A stretch of 64,000 nt of DNA, from assembly GCA_038228545.1 (NCBI GenBank), contig JBBRPE010000003.1, positions 64,442-128,441 of the forward strand, read 5' to 3'. Both the position numbers and the translations under genes were made by a program. Source of the stretch: Minisyncoccia bacterium (GTDB lineage: Bacteria > Patescibacteriota > Minisyncoccia > Phycocordibacterales > Phycocordibacteraceae). Positions 6,815 through 56,364 of the stretch are shown piece by piece (position 1 is the first letter of the stretch; every line of letters begins with the position of its first letter). Under the pieces are notes generated by a model. It ran no database searches, was not told the origin of the DNA, and saw nothing but the letters and a program-made list of their open reading frames with translations.

Positions 6815-6885
6815 GGGTCCATAGTTTAGTGGTAGAACATCGGTCTCCAAAACCGATAGTGTAGGTTCGATTCCTACTGGGCCCG
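6815..6885 (+). tRNA. tRNA-Trp (anticodon CCA)
   Basis: Cloverleaf readable by hand. Acceptor gggtcca/tgggccc with discriminator g. Anticodon loop ctCCAaa. T-arm ggttcgattcc. CCA is not encoded. Confidence 0.8.
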
Positions 6886-6932
6886 CAAATAGAAAAGCGC
6901 CATTCGGCGCCTTTTCTATTTGCGGGCCCAAG
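6886..6932 (+). terminator. Perfect 20-bp-stem hairpin downstream of tRNA-Trp
   Basis: gggcccgcaaatagaaaagcgcc-attc-ggcgccttttctatttgcgggccc. The stem re-uses the tRNA 3' end. Confidence 0.5.
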
Positions 6933-7006
6933 CAAACCTGGGAGGTTTGCTTGTAGGAATCGAAGATGTTGCGGAGAAATGGAGGAAATGGGGTCAGGAA
7001 ATGGGG

Positions 7007-7684
7007 TCAGCCACCATTCTTTTTCGGACGTCCGACTGTCCGGAGAGTTTGCTCGAGACCGTGTCTCTTCACCATGGTATCAAGCCACACGTCGTTCCCA
7101 AACGGAATACTCTTTCTTTCAGACTGTTCGAGTGCTTCTTCTTCGCTTGGGGTCTGCGGCTCGTCGAGCCATGCAAGATAGTCAGGGGGAGAGGATACGG
7201 GCCAGGCTGAGAGGAGTTTCTGTTGTTGTGCAGTACCACTTTCTCTTCGCCAGGCACTTCCCCACCTCCACTGTGGTGCACTCTTTACCAAGTTTGCTTT
7301 CTTAGCGTTTCGCTCAACGTATCTAACCAGAGTTAGAAAATACTTGTCCTCTCCACAGAGAAAGGACTTGTAGCGTCCCTGATACAGATGACCTTCGCCG
7401 ACCGTTCCTTTTGCGATATGCCATCGGCGGGTATGAGTGTTGGTGACCCAAGACATGAATTTCGAGAGATCGCCGTCTTCTTTCGGGTACAGGACAAGAT
7501 GCCAGTGATTGGGCATGAGGCAATACGCGAGTATGCGCATATCGAAGGTTTCTGCTGCTTCTTCCAGGATGGTCTCGAACATGCGATAGTCGTCAGGAGT
7601 GTCGAAAATCTGAGCACGGACATTGGCGCGATTAAGGACGTGATATACATGTTTTCCCACGTCGACACGTTCGATGCGTGGCAT
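7007..7684 (-). CDS. Y1 (HUH) transposase, IS200-like / REP-associated tyrosine transposase-like
   Basis: HuH motif in YCLMPNHWHLVL and conserved HVYHVLNRANVRAQIF. At 225 aa it is longer than classic IS200 TnpA, so it may be RAYT-like. Confidence 0.7.
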   Translation of the reverse strand: MPRIERVDVGKHVYHVLNRANVRAQIFDTPDDYRMFETILEEAAETFDMRILAYCLMPNHWHLVLYPKEDGDLSKFMSWVTNTHTRRWHIAKGTVGEGHLYQGRYKSFLCGEDKYFLTLVRYVERNAKKANLVKSAPQWRWGSAWRRESGTAQQQKLLSAWPVSSPPDYLAWLDEPQTPSEEEALEQSERKSIPFGNDVWLDTMVKRHGLEQTLRTVGRPKKNGG

Positions 7685-7818: not shown

Positions 7819-7892
7819 GACCGAGCCGAGTGACGACGAGGCGAGAGTTGTGACCGCAGAGGGCCCAAGCAGGCGTGGGGCGCCTGCGTGTA

Positions 7893-8008
7893 GGAATCGA
7901 AAGGCGCAGGCCGGGTAGGCCGAGCCGGGGTCGACCAAAATCGCAGCAGCGATTTATGGGTGACTGATGCCTGCCTGATTCTTATCAGGACACTTCCTAC
8001 TGCCCACT
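7893..8008 (+). repeat. tRNA-flank structured repeat, copy A
   Basis: Has ggaatcgaaa…ggggtcgaccaaaat-[hairpin aaatcgc/agca/gcgattt]-atttatgggtgactgatgcctgcctgattcttatcaggacac. Ends with a degenerate tRNA-Trp 3' end (ttcctactgcccac). Paralogous to copies at 44143-44260 and 43555-43680. Confidence 0.6.
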
Positions 8009-9323: not shown

Positions 9324-11999
9324 CTACACACCAACGGCAACCTTCTTGGCCCGTACAGCAGATTTCTTCTTTACATCGAAATGGGGTTCACCATTCTTGA
9401 GCGTAACCGAAACAGTACCGCCCTCCATCATGCCCTGCGAGACCATATAACTTGCGATAGGCGTGAGAATCTTGTCCTGGATGGCGCGCTTTAAGGGACG
9501 AGCTCCGTATTGTGGGTTGTAGCCCTTGTCAGCGAGCCACGCACGAACTGCCGGATCGATAGTGAGTGTTATGCGCTTACCGCCAAGACGCTCGATGACA
9601 TCCTTGACTTGGTTTTCCACTATGCGTGAGAGGGACTCTTTACCAAGAACGTCGAAGATTACTATTTCATCAAGACGATTCAGGAATTCCGGACGGAAAC
9701 GGTCCTTGAGCGCGACGAGTACCTTTTCTTTTACCTGCTCATACTGCGCAACGTCGTCGGCACCGGAATACCCGAAGCCGATGTTCGCCATACGATCAAT
9801 AAATTCTGCGCCGATGTTCGACGTGAGCACGATGATGGTGTTTTTAAAGTTCACCTTGCGTCCCTTGCCATCAGTAAGGTGTCCGTTATCGAGCACCTGC
9901 AGAAGGATATTAAATACTTCCGGATGTGCTTTCTCTATCTCGTCAAAGAGGATGACAGCGTACGGACGATGACGAATACGCTCAGTGAGTGAACCCGCTT
10001 CTTCGTAGCCCACGTATCCCGGTGGTGCGCCTATGAGTTTACTGACTGAGTGCTTCTCCATGAATTCCGACATATCAACTCGTACGAGTGCTTCCGTGTC
10101 GTTAAACATGAATTCTGCAAGCTTCTTTGAAAGCTCGGTCTTACCCACTCCCGTTGGTCCCATAAAGAGGAACGAGCCGATAGGACGATTTGGGTCTGCA
10201 ATGCCGACACGAGAGCGCTTCACTGCGTCTGAAATTGCCTTAACGGCCACGTCCTGACCAATGACCGCGTCTTTGAGTGTGTCTTCCATGCGCGCGAGCT
10301 TTGCCGCCTCTTCCTCGAGCATTTTGGAGACGGGGATACCCGTCCAGCGCGACACCACACCAGCTATCTCGTGCTCAGTGACTTCTTCATGGAGTACACG
10401 ACGCGACTTCTGAAGTGTTTTAAGGCGCTTCGTCTTGGTATCAAGTTCCTTTTCAAGAACGGGAATGCGACCGTAGCGAATTTCTGCGGTTGTACCAAGG
10501 TCACTCATGGCCTCAGCATTGTCTGCCTGCTGACGCAGCTTCTCGAGCTCTCCTTTTATTTCGCGAATTGCCTGAATGACTTCCTTTTCGTTGCGCCACT
10601 TAAGCTCGAGCTCTCCCGTCTTCTCGCGGAAGTCTGCGATTTCTGCCTCAATAGTCTTAATGCGATCTTTAATTTCCTTACCATGTTCGCTCTCAATGTC
10701 TTTCTGGAGCGCTTGGCGTTCAATCTCAAGGCGACGAATCTTACGGTCAGTCTCTTCGAGAAGCGGTGGCTTGTTTTCAAGCGCAATGCGAAGTCCCGAA
10801 GCAGCTTCGTCTATAAGGTCTATCGCTTTGTCTGGGAGGAAACGGTCGCTGATGTAACGACTGGAAAGGTCCACGGCAGACACAATGGCGCCGTCGGTAA
10901 TACGCACTCCATGAAAGAGCTCGTACTTATCACGCAATCCGCGCAGGATTGCGACTGCATCTTCTACCGTTGGCTCATTAACAAATACAGGCTGGAAGCG
11001 ACGAGTGAGCGCAGTATCTTTTTCTATGTGCTGCTGATATTCCTTCAGTGTTGTTGCGCCGATAAGCCGAAATTCACCGCGCGCGAGCGCGGGCTTCAAC
11101 ATATTGCTCGCGTCCATAGCGCCTTCTGCAGCTCCGGCACCGACGAGCGTGTGCAGCTCGTCGACGAACAGAATGACCTGCCCCTGTGCCTTCTCCACTT
11201 CCTTCATAACGCTCTTCATGCGCTCCTCAAATTCTCCGCGATACTTCGTGCCAGCAATCATAAGACCGAGATCGAGTGAAAGAAGTTCTTTGCCCTTGAG
11301 GGATTCCGGCACATCGCCCGTGGCCATGCGGGATGCCAAACCTTCTGCGATAGCAGTCTTACCTACGCCCGCCTCACCGATAAGTACAGGATTATTTTTT
11401 GTACGACGCGAAAGAATTTGTATGACGCGACTTATTTCCTGGTCACGTCCTATGACGGGGTCGAGCGCGTTATCCGCAGCCATCTTCGTGAGATTACGTG
11501 TGTACTTTGCGAGTGCACGGAATCGTTTAGCTTCCCCTACCTGGCCATCCTTCGTGGACTTCAGCTCCTTAAGGACTGCAAGCACCGTCTCGTCGTCAAT
11601 CTTGAATCGATTGATGATGTCGCTCGCTGGTCCCGGGTTTTCAAGCACTGCTACAAAAAGGTGCTCAGTTCCGATGAATGAATCATTCATGCGCGCCGCG
11701 ACTTTGCCGGCAGATTCCAGTGCCTGTGCAAGGTCCGGCGTGAGGTAGAGCTGGTAGGACGGAGAAAGTGTTGCATTGGTTTCCGGAGCTTCAAGCGTTT
11801 CCAGGACGGTATCTGCAAGAAGCATGGTGTCTATGTCCATGCGGTCGAGTACGGAAAAAACCATGCTCTCTTCTTGATGAATGAGAGCGGCAAGGAGATG
11901 CAGCGGGCTTACGTGATTCTGACCCCGTTCAATAGCGAGCTCATGCGCCTTCCGTATGGCTTCTTTAGCTTTCGTGGTGAAGTTCTTGAATGGTGGCAT
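9324..11999 (-). CDS. clpB: ATP-dependent chaperone ClpB
   Basis: Two AAA+ modules ([16 protein letters not shown]) and a long coiled-coil middle domain. 891 aa. Confidence 0.9.
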
Positions 12000-17578: not shown

Positions 17579-17854
17579 CATGAAAGAAAACACTGCGTCT
17601 GCACGCAGTTTTTCTTTACATGTGCGAGGCGGAGTCATGTTTTCATTCCCCTGAAAACGGACGAGCCCGGGTCGGGGTTGCGAGCTAATTTGTAAATCCT
17701 GGAACAAATGAGCCGCAAACCGTGACCACAAGTGCGCCCACGCAGACGTGGGGTCGCGGAATCACGTCCCATGCAAGGCAACAAATCACCTAATCTGCTA
17801 CGATACACACATGCCCCTGGGGCGGAATCGGTAGACGCGAATTGGAAGTAAAGT

Positions 17855-17935
17855 GCGGGGATGGCGAAATGGTAGACGCGCCTGCCTTAGGAGCAGGTCC
17901 CTTCGGGGGTGGAGGTTCAAGTCCTCTTCCCCGCA
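17855..17935 (+). tRNA. tRNA-Leu (TAG)
   Basis: Long variable arm (ggtcccttcgggggt). Anticodon loop ctTAGga. T-arm ggttcaagtcc. Confidence 0.75.
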
Positions 17936-17995
17936 CTTTGTTTCGAATAGCCTGCCGCGGGACGTAGATGAAGTGGGGCTTCATCTACGCGCACT

Positions 17996-18046
17996 GGTCC
18001 CTTCGGGGGTGGAGGTTCAAGTCCTCTTCCCCGCACTTTGTTTCCA
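17996..18046 (+). pseudogene. Duplicate of the 3' 44 nt of tRNA-Leu(TAG) plus 9 nt of flank
   Basis: Identical ggtcccttcgggggtggaggttcaagtcctcttccccgcactttgttt. Preceded by a perfect 10-bp hairpin (gtagatgaag-tgggg-cttcatctac). Confidence 0.55.
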
Positions 18047-18125
18047 ATAGCTAATAAGCACAAAAGAAAGACGCCGTACGGCGTCTTGTGCGTTCCGGGG
18101 CAAACAGTCAGTATCTAGCGGATAC

Positions 18126-20273: not shown

Positions 20274-20633
20274 CTAGCGGCCCTGTGTAGTGTAGGGAGC
20301 GGTTGGATACGTCGGTGTGGATGGGTTGAGGTTGAAGGTACCAATAAGAATGTGTACCAAGCCCCAAACCGAGACCATGACAAAGAAGCCGATGAGACCC
20401 CAGAGCATGAGTTGCTTGCCGCTTTCACGCTTCTCTTCATCATGTCCGCCCTGAATGAAGTACTGGAAGATACCCCAGATGAAGACGATGAATGCGAGTG
20501 CGAAAACGATAGGCACCGCGACGTTGTTGATAAGGTCGATAACTATTCTGCTCGCATCGTTGACGCTGTTCACCTGCGCGAAGGCAAGGAACGGGAGAGC
20601 AAAGGCAGCACCGATATAGCCGATTTTCTTCAT
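20274..20633 (-). CDS. T4SS-pilin-like (TrbC/VirB2-like) protein
   Basis: Signal peptide (…LAFA|Q). Two TM helices flank the GGHDEEKRESGKQLMLWG motif. Confidence 0.65.
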   Translation of the reverse strand: MKKIGYIGAAFALPFLAFAQVNSVNDASRIVIDLINNVAVPIVFALAFIVFIWGIFQYFIQGGHDEEKRESGKQLMLWGLIGFFVMVSVWGLVHILIGTFNLNPSTPTYPTAPYTTQGR

Positions 20634-20736: not shown

Positions 20737-21267
20737 TTACGGAGGCGTTGGATTGGAGTTAATGATGGTTGTACCTGAATTACTTGGTGCTGGTGTTTGT
20801 GTCGCACCACTCGATGGGAGTGTTGTCTGTGTCTGGGCTGCAGGAGCGTTCGACTGATTAAACACCGGGTACTGCGGACGAACGGCAGAACTGAGGCCGA
20901 GCGTGCCGTTTATGACATTAATCAAGCCCCATACGGAAAGCATGATAACGAACCCGATAAGTCCCCACAGGAGAAGTTGCTGGCCTTCCTTACGCTTCTC
21001 TTCATTACTGCCACCGAGGATGAAGTAACGGTAGATACCGACGATGAAGACAACGAATGCAAGAGCAAAAACAATAGGAACAACAATACTATCGATGAAC
21101 GAGATGCCGCAATTGAGAAACGTGCCGAGATTCGTAATGTCGCAACGTCCGGTGCCGCCGGGTGCAAATGGGTCCGTTGGTGCGGCGTAGGCCAGCTGTG
21201 TGAATCCGAGAAATGCCACTGAAACGAGTGCAAACAGGCGAGCGATAAGAATACGGAAAGATGTCAT
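20737..21267 (-). CDS. T4SS-pilin-like (TrbC/VirB2-like) protein
   Basis: Same core (VVPIVFALAFVVFIVGIYRYFILGGSNEEKRKEGQQLLLWGLIGFVIM). C-terminal Thr/Pro/Ser-rich tail. Start taken at MTSFRILIARL. Confidence 0.6.
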   Translation of the reverse strand: MTSFRILIARLFALVSVAFLGFTQLAYAAPTDPFAPGGTGRCDITNLGTFLNCGISFIDSIVVPIVFALAFVVFIVGIYRYFILGGSNEEKRKEGQQLLLWGLIGFVIMLSVWGLINVINGTLGLSSAVRPQYPVFNQSNAPAAQTQTTLPSSGATQTPAPSNSGTTIINSNPTPP

Positions 21268-26841: not shown

Positions 26842-27234
26842 CTAAAAATGAATGACGGTCGCGTCTGACGAAGACTGTCCACTATCGAGTGTCGAGTGCA
26901 CTTGCGTGTCTACGATAGTGATGGCGGTAGGCGAGGAGGTGGCGCCTACAGCGGCGCCTGCGGCGCCGACAAGCTGTGAAAAACTATTTGAATTCTGCGT
27001 AATCGCCTCTTTAAAATTCGGTGCATTCTGATCGGTCGAAGCGAATGTCGACGGAGCGAGCGAGAACGTGCCACCAAGTGCGTTTGCAGCAAACCACCCG
27101 AGTGCAACGACAAGTGTAACGCCACCAGCTACACCCAAGGCGATATTCTGACGCACATGGAGTGGCTTCTGGCGGAGGTCGTGCACTACTTCATGGACGC
27201 GCTTTGTTTCCATACTGTTACGGGGTAATAACAA
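26842..27234 (-). CDS. Hypothetical membrane-anchored protein
   Basis: One TM helix (IALGVAGGVTLVVALGWF). Ala/Ser-rich. Confidence 0.4.
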   Translation of the reverse strand: MLLPRNSMETKRVHEVVHDLRQKPLHVRQNIALGVAGGVTLVVALGWFAANALGGTFSLAPSTFASTDQNAPNFKEAITQNSNSFSQLVGAAGAAVGATSSPTAITIVDTQVHSTLDSGQSSSDATVIHF

Positions 27235-29377: not shown

Positions 29378-30508
29378 ATGGAAACAGAAGAGAAGAAAGC
29401 TGCCCCAGTGGTAGCGTCTACGATAGTTATTGACCCGAGCCACCCGATGGCAGGGCTGATTGACTCTATCCCTACCCCACCTCGCCCAGGCGACTTGGTA
29501 GAAGGAACAATCATCGAGCTCGTCCGCGGCCGCCTCTTTGTCGACTTGCCACCGTTCGGCACCGGCATCATTTACGGACGTGAGTACCTCAACGCTGCTG
29601 ATGTGCTTCGCAAGGCAAACCCTGGCGACACCATTACGGCAAAGGTCGTTGACCCAGCAGGTATCGAAGGCTATATCGAACTTTCTCTCAAGGAAGCTCG
29701 TCAGGCAGCTATCTGGGGAGAGGCCGAGCAGGCTATCGCAGGCCAGGTGGTCTACAACCTCGTCGTTGAGGAAGCAAACAAGGGTGGACTCATCCTCTCA
29801 TGGCAGGGTATCCAGGGCTTCCTCCCTGCTTCCCAGCTCTCGAAGGACCACTACCCACGTGTACCAGAGGGCGACAAGGATAAGATTTTCGGTGAGCTCT
29901 TGAAGCTCGTCGGTGTCGCACTCCCGGTCCGCATCATTACCGCTGAGCCAAAGGAAGGTAAGCTCATCTTCTCTGAGCGCGCAGGTGATGAAGAGCAGGA
30001 AAAGGCAAACCTTATCGACAAGTACCAGGTTGGTGACGAAGTCACGGGCGAGGTTACGGGTGCTGTCGACTTCGGTGTCTTCGTTAAGCTCGAGCAGGGT
30101 CTTGAAGGACTCGTGCACATCTCTGAGCTCGACTGGGGCCTCGTGGAAGACCCACGCGCACTCTTCACGGTCGGTGACCAGGTGAAGGTCAAGGTTATTG
30201 AAATCAAGGACGGAAAGATTTCCCTCTCCATCAAGGCACTCAAGGAGAATCCTTGGAAGACCGCTTCTGACCGTTACACGAAGGGCATGGAAGTAAATGG
30301 CGTTATCATCAAGTACAACAAGCACGGTGCACTCGCTTCCATCGAGGAAGGTGTTGCCGGCCTTGTACACATCAGCGAGTTCGCTTCCCCAGTGGAGCTC
30401 CGCGAGACGCTTGAGCTTGGTAAGAGCTATCCGTTCTCCATTACCCTCTTTGAGCCAAAGGACCAGAGGATGACGCTTGCGTACTCGGGACCGAAGGGCA
30501 AAAAATAG
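29378..30508 (+). CDS. rpsA: 30S ribosomal protein S1 (four S1 domains)
   Basis: Repeated S1 RNA-binding domain pattern (GxV.G.V…G.FV.L..g.eGLvHiSE). Confidence 0.8.
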   Translation: METEEKKAAPVVASTIVIDPSHPMAGLIDSIPTPPRPGDLVEGTIIELVRGRLFVDLPPFGTGIIYGREYLNAADVLRKANPGDTITAKVVDPAGIEGYIELSLKEARQAAIWGEAEQAIAGQVVYNLVVEEANKGGLILSWQGIQGFLPASQLSKDHYPRVPEGDKDKIFGELLKLVGVALPVRIITAEPKEGKLIFSERAGDEEQEKANLIDKYQVGDEVTGEVTGAVDFGVFVKLEQGLEGLVHISELDWGLVEDPRALFTVGDQVKVKVIEIKDGKISLSIKALKENPWKTASDRYTKGMEVNGVIIKYNKHGALASIEEGVAGLVHISEFASPVELRETLELGKSYPFSITLFEPKDQRMTLAYSGPKGKK

Positions 30509-30682
30509 CTCCGCTCGCATAGCGAACAGAACCGCAGCCCGACACTCAGGTGTCGGGTTTTGCGTTGTCTCCTCGTGGCGGAATTTCCCTAGAGCGCTTC
30601 GCTAGTCGGGAAATTCCTTCTCGGCTCTGCGCAAAACTACTCTGCCTTCGGAATAGCGGTTCTGTTCGCTACGCTCGCTCCG
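30509..30682 (+). repeat. Structured intergenic repeat, family X copy 1
   Basis: Starts at the rpsA stop. Outer helix tagcgaacagaaccgc/gcggttctgttcgcta. Terminator-like hairpin cccgacactcaggtgtcggg+tttt. Inner stem ggaatttccc/gggaaattcc around the conserved tagagcgcttcgctagtcgg. Paralog at 41429-41578. Confidence 0.65.
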
Positions 30683-30825
30683 TGAGGTAGATAAGAAAAA
30701 TGAGGAAACCTCGCTTTTCCTCAGTACAGGGTGTCTGGTACGACGTGGGAACCGCGATACTTGACCAAAGGAAATATTAGTATTATAGTTTCCCCACGTT
30801 TACGGGTTTCTTAGAGGAGATTCTG

Positions 30826-31209: not shown

Positions 31210-31330
31210 CCGCTTCTTCGGCGAAACGAAAACCAAACCTTCGTTTCGTACGAAGGGGCGGTTTTCTTTTACTTACTTATGATGACTACAATTAATTAAC
31301 GTGCTGGGAGTTTGGGACGACGTGGGAACT

Positions 31331-31786: not shown

Positions 31787-31852
31787 TTATTTGAGAATTA
31801 TGACACAAAAATCAGTGACTGGGTGTCTGGTACGACGTTGGAACTTTTTTAA

Positions 31853-41158: not shown

Positions 41159-41176
41159 ACTTCGATTGTCGAGTGG

Positions 41177-41327
41177 CTTATGCAGCCGCCTCGTCAGTCT
41201 CCTCAGCAGGCATGTCGGTAGCAACTTCTTCTGCTTCCGTACCCTCTTCCATAGGATCAGCGGCAACGCCGTCCTTCATTTCATCGTCCATCATAGTGAT
41301 TTGGGAGAACAGCTCATTCCTTGGCAT
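41177..41327 (-). CDS. Small acidic protein (50 aa)
   Basis: Not in the 6-frame track. MPRNELFSQITMMDDEMKDGVAADPMEEGTEAEEVATDMPAEETDEAAA, followed by the terminator. No RBS checked. Confidence 0.3.
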
Positions 41328-41428
41328 AAACCAAAAAATAAAGCCGTCCAATTAAATTGGCTGGCAATCGACCTACCTCTGAAGTGTACCGTCCTGAGTA
41401 TGGGAATGCAATGAAGCTTCATTCGTAA

Positions 41429-41578
41429 GCAAGAAAGGTCCGCAGCCCGACACTCAGAAGTCGGGTTTTGCGTTGTCGTCTCCTAGCGAAATATGCCTAG
41501 AGCGCTTCGCTAGTCGGCATATTTCTTCTCGACTCTGCGCAAAACTACTCTGTCTTCGGAATAGCGGACCTTTCTTGC
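41429..41578 (+). repeat. Structured intergenic repeat, family X copy 2
   Basis: Outer helix gcaagaaaggtccgc/gcggacctttcttgc. Same conserved core as X1. Inner stem gaaatatgcc/ggcatatttc compensates relative to X1. Confidence 0.65.
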
Positions 41579-41628
41579 ATACTCATTCCGTACTGAACTT
41601 TAGCCATGAGAACGGAGCGAGCGGTCTT

Positions 41629-41775
41629 GAAATAAAAGAATTTCCTGTAAGCAGCCGTAGAATACGAAGCCAGCGAGGTGAGTCATCCGACCGAGGTCTT
41701 CGAGTGGCGGTGCGAGCCGATGGCTGGCGACTTATTCTACGTGTCGCCCTGGAAGGCGGAGTCCTCTTTTATTTT
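41629..41775. repeat. Intergenic repeat, family Y copy 1
   Basis: gaaataaaaga…[long imperfect hairpin ccgtagaata…tattctacg]…tcttttattt. About 95% identical to 56211-56346. Sits immediately 3' of the ATP-grasp gene stop. Confidence 0.6.
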
Positions 41776-42979
41776 AAGATTGCGAGCGGAGCACCATATC
41801 CCAAATAAGTGCCGCTACATTCCGTGGTTCCCCCTCAAACGGCAAATGATGATTATCGAAAAACGGCATTGAATTACATTCGATTACTCCGCATCGCTCC
41901 TGTTCCTTCCAGGACTTCGTAATGTCGTCGATGATGAAATCAATGCCCACAATTGATGCCTTAAGCACCCGCGCCACTTCTTCAAAGAGTTCCGCGTTGT
42001 CCGGATGTACGTCATCAGTAACGTCAGCCGTCGTACCTCCGACGCCCCAGTTTATTTTTTGATTGAGTAGTACTTTCTGGCAGTTTTCAGGAATACTGGA
42101 AAAGGTCATCTTTTGCCAAGCAAGCTCTTTTTCTGCATTGTCATCGAGCTTCATCTGGTGGAAATACGGTCCACTACGCTTCGGGTTCTTATTCGCTTCT
42201 TCTACGAGTTCAGCCACGGTGTGCGTGCCGTCACCAATAACGTATGGCTGGTCACGCCGCAGTGTTGCTGCCAGTTTTCCATCGACAACGGTCGCGCGAT
42301 ATACCGGGCCCACCAGCTCCTCTTCTATGACGGCTGCAGGGCAAATTTGAGTAGCAATCTTAAACGCGCGTTGGAGTTCTTCAAGAGAATCAATGTGCAA
42401 TAGCGTGTGGCGAGAGCCGGAACCGGAATACGGCTTCACAATAACAGGTGGTGTAAGTCCGTTATATATCTTCTTGGCTGCCCACCAATTACTTGCTGAG
42501 CCTCCGCGGGCGACCGGCAGTCCCAGCTTTGAGAAATGTTTCTTAAGAAGTGCTTTATTATCCAGCCATTGAACACGTTGTATAGAGCGCGGTGGAAGCG
42601 GTATACCCTCGTACACTATCTTCTTCCCATCGGGCAATCGCGCCATAAATATATTGCGCGGTAGATTAAAAAGACGTACTTCTTCTATCTGAATTCCACG
42701 AGTATCAGCTTCCTTCCATAACATGAGCGCAAGAAGTTGTGTGCTGTCGTCGGGCCGAGAGATGCGTGTGGCCCAGCCAAGACGCATAAAAAGCTCAAGC
42801 AAGTATGGCGTGAGAGCACGCTCTATGGCGGACGCTCCTTTGCCAAGCACGACCCCGACAAAGCCTGGGTCAAACATGGCGCGCATCGAATCATCGATGA
42901 GAATCGTGTAGTACGTCATCCCGTGAAAGATAGGATCGCCACCGCACTCGGCACACGCTTTTGCTTGAGGCATATTCAT
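41774..42979 (-). CDS. ATP-grasp domain protein (RimK/cyanophycin-synthetase-like ligase)
   Basis: C-terminal half has ATP-grasp pattern (VIVKPYSGSGSRHTLL…VIEEELVGPVYRATVVDGKL…GVIECNSMP). Confidence 0.5.
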   Translation of the reverse strand: MNMPQAKACAECGGDPIFHGMTYYTILIDDSMRAMFDPGFVGVVLGKGASAIERALTPYLLELFMRLGWATRISRPDDSTQLLALMLWKEADTRGIQIEEVRLFNLPRNIFMARLPDGKKIVYEGIPLPPRSIQRVQWLDNKALLKKHFSKLGLPVARGGSASNWWAAKKIYNGLTPPVIVKPYSGSGSRHTLLHIDSLEELQRAFKIATQICPAAVIEEELVGPVYRATVVDGKLAATLRRDQPYVIGDGTHTVAELVEEANKNPKRSGPYFHQMKLDDNAEKELAWQKMTFSSIPENCQKVLLNQKINWGVGGTTADVTDDVHPDNAELFEEVARVLKASIVGIDFIIDDITKSWKEQERCGVIECNSMPFFDNHHLPFEGEPRNVAALIWDMVLRSQS

Positions 42980-43998: not shown

Positions 43999-44070
43999 GG
44001 TCCCATCGTCTAACGGTTAGGACGCGGCCCTTTCACGGCTGAAATCGGGGTTCGATTCCCCGTGGGATCA
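43999..44070 (+). tRNA. tRNA-Glu (TTC)
   Basis: ggtccca…cggccctTTCacggctg…cggggttcgattccccg tgggatc a. Terminator gccgccgcaaggcggtttt follows. Confidence 0.75.
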
Positions 44071-44142
44071 TGAGACACGAGCCGCCGCAAGGCGGTTTTG
44101 TGCTACATGGTCCCACGAGCACGATGTGGGACATCGTGCGGG

Positions 44143-44260
44143 GGAATCGAAACGCGGAGCCGTGTCGACGGCGAGCGGGGGTCGACCAAAATTGTAGCAA
44201 CGATTTATGGGTGACCGATGCGTGCCTGATTCCTATCTGGACACTTCCCCGTGGGATCAC
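44143..44260 (+). repeat. tRNA-flank structured repeat, copy B
   Basis: ggaatcgaaa…gggggtcgaccaaaat-[hairpin aaattg/tagcaa/cgattt]-atttatgggtgaccgatgcgtgcctgattcctatctggacac. Then ttccccgtgggatcac, a copy of the tRNA-Glu 3' end. Confidence 0.6.
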
Positions 44261-56178: not shown

Positions 56179-56210
56179 CCTCCCTCGAGCGAGGGAGTGC
56201 GAAATAAAAG

Positions 56211-56346
56211 ACTCTCTGGAAGCAGCCGTAGAATAGGAAGCCAGCGAGACGAGTCATCCGACCGAGTTCTTCGAGTGGCGGTGCGAGTCGATGGCTGGCG
56301 ACTTATTCTACGTGTCGCCCTGGAAGGCGAAGTTTTCTTTTATTTC
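56211..56346. repeat. Intergenic repeat, family Y copy 2
   Basis: gaaataaaaga…ccgtagaata…tattctacg…tcttttatttc. Lies 18 nt downstream of the lepA stop on the minus strand. Confidence 0.6.
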
Positions 56347-56364
56347 GTACACCCGAGCGACTTT

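Follow-up and report, generated by a model that had tools for sequence, protein, structure and literature searches.

What kind of element retains base pairing in helices whose sequences keep changing, and does so in contact with the stop codon of rpsA? The question is raised by X, a non-coding sequence of ~165-175 nt without an ORF, which occurs twice in the window analysed here (the whole stretch of 64,000 nt from a Minisyncoccia bacterium, contig JBBRPE010000003.1). The preliminary description of this DNA had located both copies, the first starting exactly at the rpsA stop codon, and had taken the compensatory differences between them as the mark of an RNA gene rather than of a mobile element. 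We find both copies where they had been placed, and X1 indeed opens at the base following the rpsA stop codon. With the end motifs included, X2 reaches beyond the limits first given for it (41429-41578) on both sides (Table 1).

The loop 18-mer TAGAGCGCTTCGCTAGTC occurs exactly two times in the 64-kb window against an expectation of 0.07, and the fold z-scores of X1 and X2 relative to shuffled sequences are −6.9 and −8.8 on the plus strand and −5.9 and −7.4 on the minus strand. As had been described, the outer and inner helices differ between the copies and stay complementary: the outer helix, P1, comprises 19 bp with one mismatch in each copy, and the inner helix, P4, is paired at 10 of 10 positions in both. 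The core had also been called identical in the two copies, which is too strong, since identity outside P1 and P4 is 92%; the copies differ atop the first hairpin, where GT has become AA, at two single positions, and in an internal loop that varies. X2 is antisense to both of its flanking genes, which lie on the minus strand. A plus-strand ORF ending just before it (41166-41414) was considered and rejected, the true neighbours being these minus-strand genes.

Table 1. Coordinates of X, of the related Y elements and of the RAYT-like gene within the window.
Feature	Position	Strand	Remarks
X1, full element	30509-30684	+	Model R1, 198.6 bits; first base directly after the rpsA stop TAG (30506-30508)
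X1, 5' end signature CTCCGCTCGCA	30509-30519	+	Holds direct repeat CGCTCGC (30512-30518)
X1, P1 5' arm (terminal inverted repeat)	30517-30535	+	Pairs with 30656-30674; 19 nt, 95%
X1, P3 5' strand TTTTGCGT	30558-30565	+	Pairs with 30629-30636
X1, P4 hairpin	30580-30617	+	Variable 10-bp stem 30580-30589/30608-30617; conserved 18-nt loop 30590-30607
X1, P1 3' arm	30656-30674	+	Partner of 30517-30535
X1, 3' direct repeat and 3' end signature	30672-30683	+	CGCTCGC 30672-30678; CTCGCTCCGT 30674-30683
X2, full element	41417-41592	+	Model R1, 190.5 bits; site orthologous to that of X4 in L030
X2, left target duplication TCATTC	41419-41424	+	Reverse complement GAATGA; relative to empty allele in L029
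X2, P1 5' arm	41425-41443	+	Pairs with 41564-41582
X2, P4 hairpin	41488-41525	+	Stem 41488-41497/41516-41525; conserved loop 41498-41515
X2, right target duplication TCATTC	41583-41588	+	Relic of the ancestral ...GAATGA stop region of the ATP-grasp gene
RAYT-like Y1 (HUH) transposase gene	7007-7684	-	Pfam PF01797 (Y1_Tnp), E 1.5e-18
Y1 element	41612-41791	-	End signatures of X1, different core; R1 17 bits, E 0.006
Y2 element	56185-56362	-	Starts 4 nt after the lepA stop codon; R1 16.9 bits

A metagenome scan yielded three true copies (X3), all from the 0.1 µm fraction of Hainich groundwater: X3a lies directly after the rpsA stop codon in contigs L006 and L007, and X3b directly after the ftsZ stop codon in L008. 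Contigs retrieved around homologues of neighbouring proteins added X4 in L030, at the site orthologous to that of X2 and likewise antisense to its neighbours. Over 285 kb of sequence (the window and its relatives), the covariance model R1 returns exactly six copies in four lineages, and with filters off it finds no copy in the window beyond X1 and X2. Searches elsewhere gave chance matches or none. The loop 18-mer, used as an exact pattern on GTDB species genomes, gave four chance matches with dissimilar flanks; four exact patterns run on viral contigs gave nothing, or chance matches to the 18-mer without extended similarity; BLAST against phage and plasmid collections gave no match; and in the literature on MITEs and structured RNAs of the Candidate Phyla Radiation (CPR) we found no description. 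The search of Rfam proposed in the preliminary description places X in no known family: Rfam 15 has no match at X, or at the related Y, at gathering thresholds, and up to an E value of 10 only chance-level hits appear (E at least 4, 11-15 bits), none of them to a ribozyme model. Retrons, group II introns, diversity-generating retroelements, bridge RNAs and omega-RNAs were dropped as candidates, there being no reverse transcriptase, IS110, IscB or TnpB gene nearby and no model match.

The further copies allow the helices to be followed across lineages. Pairs were counted in a model-fitted alignment (A7) of the six copies from four lineages, an alignment biased towards the structure of the model. 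Double compensatory changes occur at 13 of the 18 pairs of P1 and at 4 of the 10 pairs of P4, in which 100% of cells are paired. P3 shows them at 3 of 8 pairs by way of X4, where TTTTGCG/CGCAAAA has become CTTCGCA/TGCGAAG. The earlier claim of three covarying helices accordingly holds for P3 once X4 is added and does not hold within the window, where only P1 and P4 covary and GTTTTGCG/CGCAAAAC is invariant. Altogether 20 pairs are changed on both sides over the four lineages, compared with 9.2 ± 2.1 in column shuffles and at most 5 when the partners are slid, and the compensatory pattern first seen in two copies thus persists in the others. A MAFFT-only alignment of three lineages presents the same picture, with 17 double and 0 one-sided changes in P1 and P4, and RNAalifold independently recovers P1, P3 and P4, favouring a rod over the P2 and P5 hairpins. 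Over the four lineages, no covariation supports P2 (the first hairpin), P5 (the small 3' hairpin) or the mini-hairpin of the conserved loop, and P2 is broken in X4. These statistics are thin, given only four lineages and six copies. Between lineages, P1 is 31-58% identical, with no terminal bases in common, and pairing is kept in each of them: pairing is preserved through double changes while the helix sequences turn over.

Compensatory double changes in excess of controls, found here over four lineages, are the generic sign of a structured RNA; folded single-stranded DNA is expected to show the same. In P1 and P4, almost all changes are clean Watson-Crick double changes, and G:U pairs are nearly absent. 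Moreover, A·C mismatches balance G:U in the variable helices, leaving no strand asymmetry, and the comparison of G:U with A·C mismatches, tried as a test of which strand folds, is uninformative because the counts are symmetric. The folded strand is therefore not assignable, and RNA is not singled out over DNA.

Could the pairing be maintained by a process acting on the DNA itself, such as templated quasi-palindrome correction or gene conversion between the arms, with the element inert once inserted? The clean double changes, with no one-sided change against 17 double ones, and the lack of strand asymmetry are what such a process would produce, and it would also account for the persistence of pairing in X4 despite a core at 72% identity and the loss of P2. 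We nevertheless consider this quite improbable, as it leaves unexplained both the 91% conservation of the unpaired core between hosts whose rpsA genes are 77% identical and an end signature that is common to several families (see below), and as a distance of 120 nt between the arms of P1 does not favour template switching.

The main idea of the preliminary description, a family of trans-acting small RNA or ribozyme genes inherited as genes, draws on the covariation in three helices together with the conserved unpaired segments, on the very stable folds and on the lack of a known family match, which would make it new. Several observations speak against it. No promoter-like site is found upstream of X1 or X2, and X1 abuts a stop codon; the copies stand in opposite orientations relative to local transcription; the variable helices hold almost no G:U pairs; and no ribozyme model responds even at the relaxed Rfam threshold. 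X is also absent from most close relatives, and its placement is incongruent with host relatedness. We therefore judge this reading improbable.

The distribution of X is best seen locus by locus. Behind rpsA, X is present in the window and in the Hainich contigs L006 and L007, L013 bears a different structured element (Z), and a plain terminator hairpin follows the stop codon in L005, L012, L014, L018, L019-L022 and L033. Six relatives that are closer or comparable have the plain terminator only, and in most close relatives a 30-nt hairpin occupies the place where X would stand. At the ftsZ site, X3b is found in L008 and a plain terminator in the window, L022, L030 and L031; a further element, V, takes this place in L005 and L013. 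L029, L031 and L022 have no X at the X2/X4 site. The empty allele of L029 reads ATGGT TCTAGAAACGGAATGA AGCCTTC (also written as ...ACGGAATGA followed by AGCC), and the filled alleles read ...GCGGAATGA, X4, GAATGAAGCC in L030 and ...ACGGAATGA, X2, GAATGAAGC in the window. Relative to L029, both insertions carry a 6-bp target duplication, GAATGA, which includes the ancestral stop codon TGA of the ATP-grasp gene. The direct repeats that flank P1 are GCTCGC, or TCATTC at the X2/X4 site; X1, X3 and Y1 have flanking direct repeats of 7-8 nt, for which no empty allele with the target was found.

Host relatedness does not predict where X occurs. The Hainich host is the most distant (S1 84% identical in amino acids, 77% in nucleotides), and relatives at 92-93% lack X at rpsA. 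The cores of X1 and X3 are 91% identical, those of X2 and X4, from closer hosts and at one site, 72%. X3a and X3b are the same at two loci, helices included, a sign of recent copying; they come from the same sample, though not provably from one genome.

Judged from the aligned genomes, presence and absence at three loci, one target duplication and a distribution that does not follow host relatedness establish X as mobile and not as a resident gene. The step from covariation to an RNA gene rather than a mobile element consequently does not stand: relatives have empty sites at all three loci, GAATGA is duplicated, and congruence with the hosts is lacking. Compensatory changes across a hairpin are common in REPINs, which provide a precedent among mobile DNA (PMC3116915). 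The core of X is conserved about as well as the surrounding coding sequence; against the mobile reading, so strong a conservation could reflect a host function instead of the binding site of a transposition enzyme. We also considered whether the core was inserted into the loop of a pre-existing terminator, P1 being host-derived. This was rejected as a general rule because X3a and X3b have the same P1 at two loci; in addition, the X2/X4 duplication lies outside P1, although P1 is terminator-like.

In its small size, lack of coding capacity, several copies, presence and absence between relatives and target-site duplication, X resembles a MITE. A classical double-strand MITE, whose conserved terminal inverted repeats are bound by a DDE transposase and whose helix differences represent decay, would share the order of target duplication, terminal repeat, core, terminal repeat and target duplication, but is highly improbable here. 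The terminal repeats of X diverge between lineages to the extent given above, without common terminal bases, and still pair, and the conserved part is the internal core, the reverse of a DDE MITE. Pfam scans of the window detect neither a DDE transposase nor an integrase, and no insertion sequence with ends matching P1 was found in the window.

X also proves to be one member of a superfamily, comprising X, Y, U, V and probably Z, whose cores are unrelated and which have in common an end signature, CTYCRYTCG...CTCRYTYCRT, and the clamp architecture. It is found in a narrow clade of Parcubacteria; homologues of S1 assign the window to this group (Paceibacteria). Scanning 263 kb for CTYCRYTCR followed by CTCRYTYCRT at a spacing of 100-300 nt, we find the motif pair 8 times, with ~0.5 expected, and every match is a structured element (X1, X2, X3a, Y1, U in L030, and V in L005 and L013). 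R1 weakly matches Y1, Y2 and U over their full length and in the predicted orientation. Y1 lies tail-to-tail with X2, overwrites the last codons of the ATP-grasp gene and has the same 12-nt flanks as X1, GCTCCGCTCGCA...CGCTCGCTCCGT. Y2 is ~92% identical to Y1 and has different flanks (TCGCTCG direct repeats). The Y fold is multi-branched, similar to that of X, and closed by a long A/T-rich outer helix.

Different members occupy the same sites. The rpsA stop codon is taken by X, X and Z, and the ftsZ stop codon by V, V and X. At the end of the ATP-grasp gene, Y (window) and U (L030) are inserted at the same nucleotide, where they replace the last codons and bring a new stop, Z (L022) lies across the stop codon, and X2/X4 sit at the old stop. 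Of 13 superfamily elements, 11 either overlap a stop codon or have their start no more than 4 nt away from it. The nature of the end motif differs between sites: at X2/X4 it is duplicated host sequence, and at Y1/U the empty alleles have neither copy of the motif. The motifs are thus neither purely a target duplication, which is true at X2/X4 and fails at Y1/U, nor purely the ends of the element, which X2/X4 contradict. An exact 3' end motif, CGCTCGCTCCG, at 27052-27062 on the minus strand was rejected as a footprint, since it belongs to a native gene and encodes FSLAP, a conserved segment of the small protein; natural, unoccupied look-alikes of the insertion target therefore exist.

Further elements were noted in the relatives. 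A longer Y variant, Y3, lies in a divergent intergenic region of L013 (9424-9631, minus strand). Additional families of structured elements (Z, U, V and others), in most cases in contact with a stop codon, are found at L013 6729-6862 and 15332-15496, L022 10461-10545 (minus strand), L030 11189-11351, L005 19714-19875, and L033 ~7040-7210 and 10835-11075. In Z1, the three mismatches of the outer helix would all become G:U pairs if the strand that folds were the one antisense to rpsA. L021 (11126-11145) and L019 (7230-7245), whose S1 proteins are identical, differ just after the rpsA stop codon, with TATCTTCGCTCTAG in the former and ATCTAAAGCAAG in the latter; TATCTTCGCTCTAG looks like an end motif standing alone, possibly a footprint.

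Placement next to stop codons raises the possibility of a role at the transcript end. P1 resembles the local terminator stems in that its 5' arm is rich in A, its apex in GC and its 3' arm in U, and R1 matches plain terminators through P1 alone. Neither X1 nor X2 contains a plus-strand terminator-like site, P1 being terminator-like in composition only. The sole other plus-strand hairpin between X1 and the next promoter, at 30701-30723, has no U tail on that strand, which, together with the lack of a promoter-like site before X1, makes co-transcription of X1 and an effect on the transcript end likely. The P1 clamp helix of X probably shapes this end. As for the hairpin at 30701-30723, the minus strand is the only one on which it makes a good terminator (tail TTTTTCTTAT); no gene on that strand obviously reads into it, and it may be a relic of a convergent gene that is present here in relatives.

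X might accordingly be a host-beneficial, cis-acting 3'-UTR module, that is, an elaborate terminator, a stabiliser or an RNase III site, kept by selection for gene expression and spread between strains by recombination and not by its own transposition. In addition to the stop-codon adjacency of 11 of the 13 elements and the local terminator character of the P1 arms, rpsA, ftsZ and lepA count among highly expressed or essential genes, the core is highly conserved, and no canonical plus-strand terminator lies between X1 and the next promoter. The terminator or 3'-UTR element that the preliminary description had entertained thus remains plausible from the composition of P1 and the placement of X1, but other copies do not conform. 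X3a and Z1 each have an ordinary terminator behind them and are not needed for termination, and X2 and X4 are antisense to both neighbouring genes; consequently, a host function is not needed to explain the family. Moreover, a 30-nt hairpin suffices at the same sites in most close relatives, and the 6-bp target duplication marks insertion, not homologous exchange. We regard such a module as unlikely, if still a serious contender.

With slightly better than even confidence, we favour the reading that X is a non-autonomous mobile element whose movement depends on its structure and which is transcribed within the 3' UTR. In this mechanism, the terminal inverted repeat P1 (16-19 bp) would clamp a multi-helix fold containing P3, P4 and the conserved unpaired core. 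The form that is recognised and propagated would be a folded single strand, either ssDNA or RNA, as the drift of the helix sequences under retained pairing and a retained unpaired core suggests. An enzyme acting in trans may handle the folded strand. Elements of the superfamily land repeatedly at or beside the stop codons of housekeeping genes. After insertion, the element would be co-transcribed with the upstream gene, its A-rich/U-rich clamp helix presumably forming a transcript-end structure, either a terminator or a block to 3' exonucleases. Against this reading, X2 and X4, being antisense to their neighbours, leave no room for a sense-strand RNA role in every copy, and neither a circle nor an excision product was seen.

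The RAYT-like HUH transposase gene (Table 1) is the only gene for a mobile-element enzyme seen in the window and is a candidate, and no more than that, for the mobiliser of X. Its protein scores 62.9 bits with NCBIfam REP_Tyr_transpos, under the cut-off of 80, and 20.7 bits with IS200. A search with R1 finds no X-like sequence near the gene, which is flanked by other hairpin repeats, unrelated to X, at 6924-6964 and 7861-7901; X thus lacks the REP-RAYT arrangement in which repeats of the same family flank the RAYT gene. In the flanking hairpins, the stems vary and covary, and the TGGGA/TGGGG loop and the tail, (T/G)RGGAATCGAA, are conserved; the complement of the tail mimics a tRNA T-arm. The gene itself adjoins a tRNA (6815-6885), and a third such hairpin (44100-44160) lies beside another tRNA (43999-44070).

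The closest known kind is structured small mobile DNA, namely REPINs and transcribed MITEs. The presumed mobiliser of REPINs is the RAYT, an HUH enzyme that acts in trans and is encoded by a single-copy gene. Like X, REPINs are small, non-coding, interspersed and extragenic, and form long hairpins in ssDNA or mRNA. However, the ends of a REPIN (the REP with its GTAG head) are conserved and its spacer covaries; X shows the opposite, with covarying ends around a conserved interior. X is not built of two inverted REP units (palindromes of 20-40 nt with a GTAG-type head), and no conserved tetranucleotide heads its arms. X further departs from REPINs in its low copy number and in the direct repeats at its flanks, which at one site are a demonstrated target duplication. 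Transcribed MITEs (ERIC/IRU, Correia/NEMIS, RUP, BOX and the Rickettsia palindromic elements) have stable RNA folds that can alter mRNA stability or termination. X resembles them in a length of 100-200 nt, the lack of an ORF, terminal inverted repeats, target duplications and its position in transcribed regions, but their terminal repeats are conserved in sequence and traceable to an IS family, whereas those of X are variable. To our knowledge, non-conserved terminal repeats of this kind are unlike those of any transposon with a characterised enzyme, a point against the reading that we favour, and we know of no family of transcribed MITEs that sits systematically against stop codons or shares an end signature across unrelated cores. 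X is set apart by variable ends around a conserved interior, by the end signature common across families and by its adjacency to stop codons.

Three other systems share individual traits with X. The attC sites of integrons (e.g. Vibrio VCRs) are ~60-140 nt long, lie immediately 3' of ORFs and are recognised as folded single strands; as in X, they often touch the stop codon, and structure is conserved more than sequence. Their ends are inverted core sites, RYYYAAC/GTTRRRY, with the outside conserved, whereas the end motifs of X are direct repeats without GTTRRRY, and no integrase or cassette array is found nearby, the neighbours being rpsA, ftsZ and lepA. PATEs, which derive from IS200/IS605 and move by ssDNA "peel and paste", likewise depend on structure for recognition of a single strand, and their short specific target may reappear at the other end, where it mimics a direct repeat. 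They have a subterminal hairpin at each end and no target duplication, in contrast to the one long-range clamp helix of X and its true host duplication at one site. Intrinsic terminators, finally, are similar in the composition of the P1 arms and in their place just after stop codons. X lacks their GC-rich stem with a short loop and a directly following U tract; it has a conserved, structured core of ~120 nt in place of a loop of 3-8 nt, and no uninterrupted U tract.

On a more speculative note, the superfamily could represent an undescribed class of cassette-like, mobile 3'-end modules in Parcubacteria, with several families and one end signature, inserted and possibly exchanged at a few stop-codon positions. 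Instead of conserved terminal repeats, the machinery would recognise a short GCTC-rich target together with a folded single strand, and the modules would serve as transcript-end structures. We know of no transposon, integron or REP system that combines stop-codon-adjacent targeting with the swapping of terminator cassettes, and we put this proposal forward tentatively, with a clear lean against it.

CPR genomes are tiny and had been considered poor in repeats. The X superfamily suggests a single-strand, structure-reading insertion mechanism with an unusual choice of target, and is a source of natural 3'-UTR structures in unculturable organisms. It also calls for caution in RNA-motif discovery, as RNA genes cannot be told from structured mobile DNA by covariation alone.

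We note several other repeats in the window. A 77-nt repeat (90% identical, 7921-7997 and 44172-44248) follows the REP-like hairpins at both tRNA-adjacent sites; its copy at 44172-44248 ends in a duplicate tRNA 3' end, CCCCGTGGGATCA, and looks like a tRNA-targeted insertion without its transposase. The 3' half of the tRNA at 17855-17935, together with its trailer (17896-17951), is duplicated 100 nt downstream (17996-18051, 98% identity), and the 5' leader of this tRNA (17841-17861) can pair with either copy. The 27-nt motif ACAGGGTGTCTGGTACGACGTGGGAAC occurs three times on the plus strand (30726-30752, 31303-31329 and 31818-31844, spaced by 515-577 nt); its copies are spread around three small, functionally unassigned genes that follow closely behind X1, and the first copy abuts a promoter-like site at 30761-30789. 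A 190-nt direct repeat (71% identical, 20327-20516 and 20892-21081) lies in a T4SS-pilin-like gene cluster and probably reflects paralogous genes.
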